Source: Pristiophorus japonicus
Lineage: Eukaryota
Direction: 5' to 3'
NCBI RefSeq assembly: GCF_044704955.1
Contig: NW_027254368.1
Coordinates: 372,001-436,000, forward strand
Length of the DNA: 64,000 bases
The notes beneath the pieces were generated by a model that was given only the letters and a program-made list of their open reading frames with translations, was not told where the DNA came from and did not search any database. The position numbers and the translations under genes are program-made. Below are positions 35,701 to 43,593 of this stretch, one piece after another. The stretch's first letter is position 1, and every line of letters starts with the position of its first letter.

Positions 35701-35741
35701 AGCAAAGCTCCCTTCAGATCTGTGCCTGACTGAACAAGATG

Positions 35742-36108
<367 letters not shown>

Positions 36109-37034
36109 AACTCCACGCTGTCCTGACCGAACAAACCCCAAACACAACGGCTCTTTTAAGAGCCATCCACAACATCATTGAAAGAGCTGCACAAACCCTT
36201 TATACTGAATTTACTGTAATTATTTCCCGAACAAGTGTGTGTGAGAACCTTTGCAGTACTAGTTATAGATTCAGTTTTGAATTCTCAAGCAGCTTCGCTG
36301 TCTGGTTCGACCTTGGCGTCGCTGGAATTTCCCGCAGTGAGTAAACTCCAAACACTGTCCCTGGTCGCATTCCCTTTGCTCTCAGCCCCGTTCATTCACA
36401 GCGCCTGCTGACAAAGGACTTATTTTGGGGGGCGGGGAAACTCCGATTTCAGTCATACATTCTCACTCAAGCCCTTTTCACTTTTTTTTTTATTCCGTTG
36501 CGGCTCAGTCCGTTATTAACCTGAGACTTCCCTCAGTGTAATAACCCAGAACGGGAGCAGTTTGAACACACTATCTCTCTTCACAGAAGAACGCCCAGTT
36601 CTGGTCTCACTTCCACAGCAGTTTCTGTGAAAAGAAGTTCACTTTTACAAAGATGAGCTGGAATGTGTCCCATTACAGAATCAATGGGGACTGAGTCCCG
36701 CCCGTTACAGACAGTTTGAAACTGAAGCCGAATGTAATCCTGATTGTAGCAGCCTGGAATTTGCAAGGGAAATATGGAATAAGATAAAAGGAAAGTGTTT
36801 TGAAGTATTTGCTAATGGTGAAGTTACTAGTATAATTCACAATTTTAACAATTATTGGCGGGATTTTTTAATTTAAAAAATCGTTAGCTTCTGACTGTTG
36901 AGAACCAGTAATTTCCGCCCTCCTTTCATTGGTGGACTAAGCAGGCTGTGATTGGTCAGCGGAAACGACCAATGAAATTCACTACAGAATGACCAATTAC
37001 AACTTCACTCCCTGAATCCCTCCAGAAGCTATAA

Positions 37035-37478
<444 letters not shown>

Positions 37479-37914
37479 AGCGGACAGATTTAATCTAATA
37501 ACCCAAAGGCTCTTTTCAGAGCCACCCACAGTATCTGTGAAAGGCTGCTTACTGTCTGAATGGAGACTTTGAGGTAATGTACCGATAAATTGGCCTATTT
37601 CAGACCTGTATGCGGGAGTTTTCAGTTATCTGTCTCTGCATTACGGTTCTCTACTCACACAAACGCTCTTCTAGTTAGCAGCGAATAATTGAACTACAGT
37701 TGTTAAAGACTCAAAAATTGTATAAATACCGCAACCGGTTCCCTAAATATTTTTTAGTCTGTCAATGAAAGCTGTATGAAGAGAGTCGGCGGTTATTAAA
37801 AGGGCCTAGTTTAATTCTGGTCTGGTTTGAGAGTTTGAATGCTGGTTCTGTTCTCGGGAGCTCCGGCCGTTTCCGGGCTGTGTATTTCTTTCCTGAGCCG
37901 GTCAGTTCAGACCG

Positions 37915-41193: not shown

Positions 41194-41796
41194 ACGGCAT
41201 ATTTCAGATGAAGGTAATACAGAAACAGCTAATGTTGTTACAGCAGTGACTGATAAGAAAGGTGTTGAATTAAACGGTGAGCGGAAGGACAGTGAGGGTC
41301 TCTTGCCCTCAAAGAAGGATTCCCAGGTCCTGATCAGAAGTGACCCTCAGGCAATCTCGGTGATAAACCGGTTAATGTCTCTCGAACATGTAGAAATCTA
41401 GATCGACAGTGACTTTGCTGTTCAGATTATTGAATATATATATATATATAGGAAAACACGTGAATGAACCTTCCTCACAAGACCGTCCGTCAGTAACCAT
41501 TTTTGCCTGAGAGCAGAATAGAAACATAAAGAACAGAGTATAAATCGGGAGGGGATGTAATTGATGACTTTGAATTTGAGATTGTGGCGAGCAATAAATT
41601 TGATTGGTCTCTTTAAACACCCAATCAGAGAGATACAGAACAATAGAAATTGACAACGCAGCCAACGAACCAATCACAGTCATTGCCTTCACCCATCCCT
41701 CATTCGCATCGGGCTGTGGGCGGAGTGTGGGGCTGCCTATATAATGCGAGCTCCGAGCTGAGTTTCCTTCATAATTGTGCCTGACTGAACAAGACG

Positions 41797-42389
41797 GTGT
41801 CTGTCACTTCTCGGCCTTTTCGCTAAGATCATGCGTAACTGACCTGACAGGGGAGTAACCATGACCCCAAAGTGGTTCTCCCTGGATCAGGAAGGTGGTT
41901 CTCCTATGCTTTTTGGAAATAGGAGGTGGGTGGGATGGCTTGACCCATCCACCTCCACGGAGGTGTGTGGGGGACCTGACCCATCCACCTCCATGGCACG
42001 AACCTGGTATTGCAGTACTTCCAGGAACGGTGCAGTGGCTCTAGGCCTTTTGGCTAAGAGCATTGGCGCAGAGTGATCCTTGACTGGTGCAGGGTGACCT
42101 CTGGCGTTTGTGACTTGACAAAGAATTGGAAACGATTGGCTACGAATTTATAAAAAAAAAAAAAAATCCACCTCCACGGAGGTGTGTGGGGGGCCTGACC
42201 CATCCACCTCCATGGCACGAACCTGGTATTGCAGTACTTCCAGGAACGGTGCAGTGGCTCTCGGCCTTTTGGCTAAGAGCATTGGCGCAGAGTGATCCTT
42301 GATGTGTGCTAGGTGACCTCTGGCGTTTGTGATTTGACAAAGAATTGGAAAGATTGGCAACGAAAAATTAAAAAAATAGAAAAAAAAAC
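41797..42389 (+). mobile_element. U2/U1 snRNA-derived chimeric retroposon (candidate SINEU-like), two units
   Basis: U2 5' end at 41803-41831; U1 5' end at 41836-41885; U2 Sm region/SLIII/SLIV at 41909-42034; second U2 SLI at 42038-42061; poly(A) at 42152-42166; second partial unit to an A-rich tail; TSD CAAGACG at 41790-41796 and 42390-42396. Confidence 0.85.
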
Positions 42390-42396
42390 CAAGACG

Positions 42397-42771
42397 ATGC
42401 CTGAGGAAAAGAAACAAATTGCCAAGAAAGGCGCCAAGAAAGTAATCAAGAAAACACCACCGAAGGGCGGCAAGAAGCGCAGAAAGTCGAGGAAGGAGAG
42501 TTACTCCATCTACATCTACAAAGTGATGAAGCAGGTTCACCCCGACACCGGCATCTCCTCCAAGGCCATGGGCATCATGAACTCGTTTGTGAACGATATT
42601 TTCGAGCGCATCGCGGATGAGGCTTCCCGCCTGGCCCATTACAACAAGCGCTGCACCATCAGCTCCCGGGAGATCCAGACCGCCGTGCGCCTGCTGCTGC
42701 CCGGGGAGCTGGCCAAGCACCCCGTGTCGGAAGGGACAAAGGCGGTGACCAAGTACACCAGCTCCAAGTAA
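42397..42771 (+). CDS. H2B: Histone H2B, open ORF (124 aa) with 5'UTR disrupted by the insertion
   Basis: MPEEKKQ...KYTSSK; stem-loop at 42812-42827; non-canonical residues (IADEA, KRCTI, KHPVS). Confidence 0.88.
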
Positions 42772-43593
42772 AACTCCATGCTGTCCTGACAGAACAAACC
42801 CCAAACACAACGGCTCTTTTAAGAGCCACCCACAACATCGTTGAAAGAGCTGCACAAACGCGTCATCCTTTAAACTCAATTTACTGTAGTTATTGCCTGA
42901 GCAAATGTGTTTGACAACCTTTAAAGATCCAGCTGTAGATTTAGATTTGAATTCTCAGATAAGCGGTTTTACTGTCCAGTTCAACCTGAGCTTCGCTGAT
43001 GAATTTCCCTCCCAGTAAACTACACACACTGTCCCTGGTCGCCTGCCGACGAATTATGATCTTGTTTTAGGGGTTGAGACTCAGACTTTAGTCACCTCAT
43101 TCTCTCTCTTTATAGTTTAAAATAAAATTGTAGTTCGGGGTCAATCTGCTTATTAACCGAGACTCCGTGTGTAACAAGCCAGAATGGGAGTTCTTCCAGA
43201 GACCAGAACGGGGGCAGTTTGAACACTCTGTCCCTCTTTTCTCACAGAAGGACTCCCAGTTCTAGTCTCACTCCCGCCTGTGCGGAGGATCGATCACCAT
43301 CTGTGATTCCCAAATTGTACAAAGACTGAGCTGGAATGTGTCCCGTTACGGAAAATTCCCGCCCATTACAGACTGTTTGAAACTGAACCCGAATTTAATC
43401 CTGATTGTAACATCCTGGAATTTGCAAGGTAATATAGAATAAGACAGAAGGAATTAAAACTCTTTGACTAATGATGAATTTATTAATATAATCCGCACTT
43501 GTAAAAATTATTGGCGGGCTTTTTGAAATTGAAAATTCGTCAAAGATCGGACTGTTAACAATAATTTTCACCCTCTTTTCATTGGCGGACTAA

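Follow-up and report, generated by a model that had tools for sequence, protein, structure and literature searches.

A young snRNA-headed SINE family in the shark Pristiophorus japonicus, with copies inside U2 genes and a likely Keno-type LINE partner

Described relatives among snRNA-derived and U2-targeting elements

SINEs with snRNA-derived heads were described in crocodilians as the families SINEU-1, -2, and -3 (Kojima 2015, PMC4494074). According to passages of that paper, no SINEU was found outside crocodilians, and the relevant part of a 2017 review (PMC5381603) lists SINEU for crocodilians only. The transcription of SINEU was treated in the 2015 text as an open question, with an R2-like dependence on flanking promoters noted as possible. 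As described there, the SINEU families resemble the family analyzed here in their stepwise U1/U2-derived heads, poly(A) ends, no LINE-derived tail found, internal T-runs, no Pol III promoter, and tandem copies sandwiching a target site duplication (TSD). The resemblance extends to the proposal of a Tx1 partner that clusters with Keno, to U1/U2 heads on Tx1 partners, and to insertion hot spots in other transposable elements. The part order of the shark family, U2-U1-U1-U2-U2-tail, is unlike that given in the text descriptions of SINEU-1, -2, and -3, and we treat the family as separate from them; the target preference of the three crocodilian families is Mariner-N4_AMi. Their proposed partner, Tx1-Mar, is old (85–87% to consensus) and targets Mariner, whereas the partner in the shark is young, intact, and still U2-targeting. 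Copies inside U2 genes at the Keno site occur in the shark and are absent from the SINEU account in the main text of PMC4494074. In that account the likely crocodilian partner LINEs are old and SINEU transcription is left open; the young and apparently intact system in the shark genome makes the question directly testable. The shark family has the features of the SINEU class, namely a U1/U2-derived 5′ head, a non-coding unit of less than 500 bp with a 3′ poly(A), dispersed multicopy occurrence with TSDs, and target use in common with a Tx1-clade LINE. The features of a classical Pol III SINE (A and B boxes, a tRNA-like head, and no T-run terminators) and of a classical SINE–LINE pair (homology of the 3′ tail with the 3′ end of the LINE) were not found in it.

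Keno was reportedly first described by Kojima and Fujiwara in 2004. Its published 3′ target, as given in passages of two papers (PMC6136364; PMC4640811), is U2 from nt 38/39, the same as the junction found here, and the shark LINE resembles Keno in this 3′ flank and in its AP endonuclease. It differs in its relaxed specificity, in the re-targeting of its own U2-like head, and in having a SINE passenger.

R2 and R1 and their non-autonomous derivatives, among them the R2-derived SIDE elements in rDNA, resemble the shark SINE in site-specific residence in a tandem RNA-gene array and in transcription by the host unit, which for the SINE is proposed here. R2 and R1 occupy Pol I units and are array-bound, whereas the SINE derives from snRNAs, occupies a Pol II snRNA array, and has thousands of dispersed copies. 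Co-transcription of R2 with its host unit is cited in a passage of PMC4494074, and processed or tailless snRNA retropseudogenes and U6–L1 chimeras are described in the same text. Like the shark SINE, template-switch-formed retropseudogenes combine snRNA sequence with poly(A) and a TSD; they are one-off products, whereas the SINE has shared multi-part junctions and nested subfamilies.

Neither an snRNA-derived SINE from a shark nor SINE source genes located within U2 genes turned up in the open literature searched; subscription papers, Repbase, and Dfam lay outside the search. The pertinent passages of PMC7245038 and PMC5499810 contain no shark case. An snRNA-headed SINE was known before from crocodilians; the shark family and its U2-resident copies are new to the literature searched, and the family may have a catalogue entry in Repbase or Dfam. 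The family would be a second origin of the snRNA-headed SINE class, probably independent of crocodilian SINEU. The whole system appears young and intact in one genome, with SINE subfamilies ~98% alike and LINE copies >99% alike, and the same genome also holds an ancestral simpler family and candidate source genes with private alleles.

The insert in the H2B leader and the SINE family

The window analyzed is a stretch of 64,000 nucleotides (contig NW_027254368.1, positions 372,001 to 436,000), and all features described in it are on the forward strand. The insert lies in a histone leader, downstream of the TATA box and ahead of the ATG in an H2B gene, the host target, whose coding sequence (42397–42771) is an open frame of 124 aa with a histone 3′ stem-loop behind it (42807–42852; Rfam RF00032). 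CAAGACG occurs at 41790–41796 and again at 42390–42396, immediately 5′ of the H2B ATG, and bounds the insert. Sequence comparison identified an empty site in the leader of a paralogous H2B gene (35727–35746) and in another H2B copy (L253). The insert, the order of its parts, and the empty paralogous leader had been claimed in the initial annotation, and all were recovered in place. It had also reported a single ~590-bp element with a 7-bp TSD. The CAAGACG flanks stood; the single element resolved into a ~350-nt monomer with A15 followed by the remainder of a second copy. CAAGACG is the core of a TSD that is probably ~14 nt long with two mismatches, reaching 41803 on the left side, since the 7 nt adjoining the left CAAGACG on its 3′ side agree at 5/7 positions with 42397–42403, which include the H2B ATG. 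The paralogous H2B gene (35742–36109) has its frame shifted by a 7-nt deletion relative to the gene at 42397–42771, and an H2A-like gene with a histone stem-loop (37093–37479) lies between both H2B copies.

The boundaries of the snRNA pieces were set by alignment to the U1, U2, U4, and U6 genes of the same genome. The monomer with its A15 spans 41804–42166 and starts with a head of U2 nt 2–29 containing stem-loop I (41804–41831), which is identical to the genome's own U2 at 26/28 positions. U1 nt 3–57 (41838–41891) stand in place of U2 nt ~39–96 and are followed by a repeated U1 piece, nt 35–47 (41892–41904, identity 13/13). The next part, U2 nt 97–147 with the Sm-site region and stem-loop III (41907–41959), is made into a stronger, long hairpin (predicted fold z −3.8) and is extended by an internally duplicated hairpin segment missing in A0-type copies (41960–41995). 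U2 nt 134–186, comprising stem-loop IV and the 3′ end (41981–42035), and a second U2 5′ piece, nt 7–29 (42040–42062, 21/23 identical), lead to a unique family tail of 88 nt (42063–42150) and the A15 (42152–42166). None of 500 shuffles equalled the score of the best U1, best U2, or middle U2 match. Rfam scored U2 on the insert at 50.4 bits (gathering score 46) and U1 at 22.9 bits with E 0.002, which is under the gathering score; the alignments to the genome's own genes agree with both, and the U1/U2 identities first proposed for the insert hold.

In alignments compared with shuffles, the tail had no significant match to U1, U2, U4, or the Keno-type LINE. U6 and U4 pieces in the tail were rejected, as 15/500 shuffles for U6 and 35/500 for antisense U4 reached their scores among 32 tests. 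A U6-like 12-mer, present only in derived subfamilies, was judged to be due to chance, and the Rfam matches to Prion_pknot, mir-1003, pRNA, and snoR44, all under the gathering score, were taken as chance as well.

The two copies in the insert belong to different subfamilies. The segment at 41921–42150 has 0 differences from a natural subfamily-B copy (L040), and the A15 belongs to it; the head at 41804–41920 is A-type sequence. Behind the A15, 42167–42389 runs from element nt 145 to the end with an A-rich tail, and its 42167–42364 part is A-type (3 differences from A and 9 from B). On these sequence differences, the insert is likely a younger subfamily-B copy nested in an older subfamily-A copy. 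The A copy would have landed at the H2B start codon and the B copy later at nt 144|145 of the A copy, with a homology-resolved 5′ junction between 41920 and 41935. Two further loci (L002 and L010) have the same poly(A)|nt-145 junction, preceded by a unit that is chimeric.

In the host genome (5.92 Gb searched), a family 28-mer across the U2/tail junction had 4,855 exact matches, a lower bound on the copy number, and its reversed-pattern control had 0. Of 1,858 candidates in a monomer search, the 40 that were scored showed 95–100% identity on many chromosomes, and of 901 candidates in a tail search, all 40 that were scored were 100% identical. On contig C1, 40 consecutive loci (L255–L294), chosen without regard to subfamily similarity, contained 43 monomers (A 19, D 7, B 7, E 6, C 3, and A0 1); compared with whichever of six natural reference copies was closest, their mean identity was 98.4%. 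The nested subfamilies were resolved by alignment of 135 near-full-length copies. TSDs, called as exact repeats of 7 nt or more, were found in 44/86 copies; the rate in shuffled pairs of flanks was 1.6%. Of the neighbour pairs formed by the first 100 matches, 8/99 were stacked within 700 bp, against 0.05 expected. Thousands of dispersed copies with a common mosaic order, poly(A), and individual TSDs mark a family that propagates, as opposed to a processed U2 pseudogene, in agreement with the initial annotation; a young dispersed U2/U1-derived SINE family with subfamilies is almost certainly real and self-propagating.

The 5′ ends at the same C1 loci were bimodal, falling at nt 1–20 in 29/46 and at nt 112–125 in 13/46. 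The latter lie just 3′ of a Sm-site-like T-run at the foot of the strong hairpin and, from this position in the sequence, could reflect reverse transcriptase (RT) stopping where an Sm ring is bound, or an intermediate resistant to nucleases. At seven loci (3′ junctions of L041, L053, L056, L059, L162, L164, and L286), SINEs of several subfamilies occupy one identical site in different copies of a Gypsy LTR retrotransposon; they lie antisense in its pol gene, in the interval separating RNase H from integrase, and the site is not U2-like. Crocodilian SINEU has comparable hot spots in Mariner. Recurrent insertions were also observed within ~25 bp of one position toward the 3′ end of a genomic repeat (L023, L031, L281, and L289), which may reflect no more than the abundance of that repeat.

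A Keno-type LINE and the common U2 site

A SINE beside a U2 gene (L073) led to the U2 arrays, in which full-length LINEs of ~5.7 kb were found; the copies are >99% alike and intact, with two ORFs. ORF1 encodes ZCCHC3-type RNA-binding domains and a zinc knuckle, and its homologues with a species name were all from sharks (5/7 matches named). ORF2 encodes AP endonuclease, RT, and zf-RVT domains, and the RT is 39% identical to a Takifugu RT, BAD04856, which we take to be Keno. A passage of PMC4889948 does not name it as Keno. The LINE starts with its own U2-like head of 44 nt and ends with poly(A) followed by U2 from nt 38/39, and this 3′ junction is common to LINE and SINE. The AP endonuclease and RT in ORF2, the zinc-knuckle ORF1, and the 3′ flank are those of Keno; strict U2 specificity was not found. 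The LINE is dispersed (2,440 first-look candidates), and 13 of the best 30 young matches fetched were in the U2 array, with 17 outside. We therefore name it a Keno-type LINE with relaxed specificity, a designation that refers to sequence matches in its domains and 3′ flank. Its endonuclease would have kept the exact U2 site and cut widely as well.

Exact poly(A)|U2-nt38 junctions numbered 86 genome-wide (control 0), many of them array or segmental duplicates and not independent events. They comprised 46 young SINE, 3 old SINE, and 36 LINE junctions, and 1 was left out of the sorting. The young SINE junctions were distributed over C19-type U2 units (19), sites before C9-type U2 remainders (2), and older U2-type SINEs or pseudogenes (25). 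A young SINE followed within 47 bp at the same nick in 8/17 dispersed young LINE copies, and a non-U2 site was common to one LINE (L203) and one SINE (L055). SINEs were also found at the equivalent site in the U2-like head of the LINE itself, as in L003, where the SINE is inside the Keno head, and in older U2-type SINEs. Conversely, Keno occurs at nt 37|38 of a U2-resident C-type SINE, and the idea that the U1 piece gives the SINE immunity to Keno was rejected on this ground.

A match of the tail to the 3′ end of an L1/Tx1 LINE had been put forward as a check and was absent for the partner LINE: no homology was detected between the SINE tail and the 3′ end of the intact LINE or two older 3′ fragments (shuffle p 0.115–0.77), and derivation of the tail from the LINE 3′ UTR was rejected. 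As tail homology between SINE and LINE is lacking, the SINE is likely recognized via its poly(A), in combination with a relaxed endonuclease, on the sequence data. The Keno ORF2 protein would carry out target-primed reverse transcription primed on the SINE poly(A), as for L1 and Alu, and the LINE would insert at U2 nt 37|38 and many dispersed sites. A caveat of target choice is that dispersed SINE targets had no U2-like consensus, with 4.6/18 matches equal to the chance level; only A at −1 and −2 was favoured, which is confounded with poly(A). The Keno-type LINE is very probably the partner mobilizing the SINE.

At the edge of the U2 array on C19 (69.62–69.72 Mb; L295–L302 and L100–L102), nearly all units hold full-length Keno-type LINEs or the SINE, and the LINEs are often tandem through their own U2-like head. 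The U2 array on contig C1003 has an insertion in one unit only.

The common site also appears in the history of the family, which was inferred from natural copies. An older U2-only SINE family (near-full U2, a U2 5′ piece, a ~45-nt tail, and poly(A)) occurs in several forms, 82–94% identical to U2 (L125–L140, L143–L148, and the downstream part of L223–L232). It is built of nearly full U2 with a small deletion, U2(7–38), and a 43-nt tail starting exactly at the Keno site; the target is kept in its head and was repeatedly invaded there. The U2 part of eight old-family copies is of the C19-array type at 8–10 of 11 diagnostic sites, which points to the C19-type U2 class as an RNA template for retrotransposition. 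From this old family of full U2, U2(7–38), and a short tail, the A0 form would have arisen when a U1 5′ fragment replaced U2 nt ~39–96, again approximately at the Keno site. Subfamily A would then have gained the hairpin duplication, and D, E, B, and C would have followed, with the U1 piece eroding and E having a longer U2-like head again.

Copies inside U2 genes and the proposed source of SINE transcripts

The 19 SINE copies inside U2-array genes, all in C19-type units, start at U2 +1 and immediately adjoin upstream DNA that intact U2 units carry in identical form. Their first 28 nt coincide with U2 nt 1–28, U2 nt 29–37 are missing, and U2 nt 38–191 follow the poly(A). The resident copies fall into three nested allele states. 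State 0 had 176 genome matches (1 in the C19 array, 1 in a C9 U2 gene, and ~174 dispersed); state 1, which adds one base, had 11 (2 array and 9 dispersed); and state 2, which adds two substitutions, had 18 (16 array and 2 dispersed). Since the nested resident states match ~174, 9, and 2 dispersed copies, U2-resident source genes are suggested, and the U2-array copies are, on this sequence pattern, probable candidates for the source genes of subfamily C. All 20 copies found behind U2 upstream DNA belong to subfamily C, compared with 3/43 in the unselected C1 sample, and in the U2 loci read, subfamilies A, B, D, and E had no resident copies behind U2 upstream DNA. The resident copies bear on how snRNA-headed SINEs are transcribed.

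Two U2 gene classes were observed, a homogeneous ~770-bp tandem with CpG-rich upstream DNA and no recognizable PSE or octamer (L074 and L077) and the C9 class (L143), whose ~18–21-kb units are full of Keno and SINE debris. With a small PSE matrix built from U1, U4, and U6 genes of the same genome, no PSE was recognized in the C19-type U2 unit (p 0.78), and one was present in the C9-type unit (p 0.004). The upstream DNA of C19-type U2 is CpG-rich, with an observed/expected ratio of 0.96. A copy behind the PSE of a C9-type U2 gene (L142) was rejected as a source, as its private base gave 1 match and thus no daughter. SINE pieces near U1 genes (L061 and L070) were rejected as promoter-linked masters, as they are 5′-truncated copies within another repeat. 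Pol III transcription is unlikely because a B box is missing from the monomer (the tail holds one A-box-like match) and T-runs occur at 41817, 41910, and 42048. No tRNA gene was found within the 64-kb window, nor any tRNA, 5S, or SRP Rfam match on the insert, and a Pol III promoter or tRNA head was rejected.

In the mechanism we propose, the 5′ junction of the SINE would form by annealing to U2 nt 1–28, so that a copy in a U2 gene inherits the external Pol II promoter and start site, and array turnover would amplify and replace resident copies, giving successive source alleles. This explanation as a whole, a SINEU-type family copied by Keno and partly transcribed from U2-resident copies, seems to us rather probable on the sequence evidence. 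We are evenly divided on the further proposition that the U2 array is home to a promoterless SINE which parasitizes another parasite, Keno, and that unequal exchange there, by amplifying, mutating, and replacing its source genes, yields the succession of subfamilies genome-wide. If true, the snRNA heads would be target-matching adaptors and not promoters, and independent SINEU origins in crocodilians and sharks would be accounted for wherever a Keno-clade LINE exists.

The source genes could instead lie elsewhere, behind a flanking gene or transposable-element promoter or using a Pol II promoter internal to the U2-like head, leaving the U2-array copies as dead-end passengers of concerted evolution in a family that is real and Keno-driven. 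The missing PSE in the C19-type unit, the lack of A, B, D, and E residents, and the lack of daughters of L142 fit such an arrangement, and the 13/30 best young LINE matches in the U2 array indicate that recent U2-gene insertions may be common. Array turnover could also purge old insertions, making the resident copies recent passengers, and a 5′ end at +1 could arise by template switching onto U2 snRNA, as two copies (L010 and L016) carry longer U2 5′ additions. However, one array holds all three nested C states, and their dispersed counts would require repeated independent U2-gene insertions from lineages of only ~3 and 10 events; moreover, no shared 5′ extension beyond +1 was found in 22 near-identical dispersed copies. 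We consider sources elsewhere unlikely, though deserving of serious attention.

It is improbable that a different, unspecific L1/Tx1 family made most dispersed copies and Keno only the U2-site insertions. The lack of U2 likeness at dispersed sites and of homology between the SINE tail and Keno would suit a second LINE, but the Keno-type LINE is itself dispersed and stacked with the SINE at the same nick, and shares a non-U2 site with it. A host-selected variant snRNA with the dispersed copies as its pseudogenes is suggested by the fold, predicted to be better than that of shuffles, and by retention in up to 6/29 U2-head units on contig C1832. This is highly improbable, as the RNA is without the region of U2 that pairs with the branch point, erosion of the U1 piece proceeds from A to B and C, subfamilies turn over fast, and a U2 gene is destroyed by every resident copy. 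U2 5′ additions do recur and head/tail chimeras exist, in line with chimeric U1/U2 retropseudogenes that formed independently and add up to the copies seen, no family propagating itself, but this origin is refuted by thousands of copies that have their multi-part junctions in common, together with a unique tail and diagnostic mutations that are nested, and we give it practically no weight.

The SINE acts as a mutagen of multicopy genes (U2, H2B, and H4). Histone genes hold 2/9 of the dispersed state-1 copies, one in H2B (L253 on C3804) and one in H4, as read from its flank (L250 on C19), and the window copy is likewise in a histone gene; from these positions, insertion may favour multicopy genes that cluster with snRNA loci. 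Extra U2 5′ pieces were observed on some SINE copies and end near nt 53 (L016, L232, and five in tandem in L129) or nt 58 (L010); they may come from U2-resident copies or template switches. Nt 53 is also the end of the 16-nt duplication at the Keno insertion on C1003.
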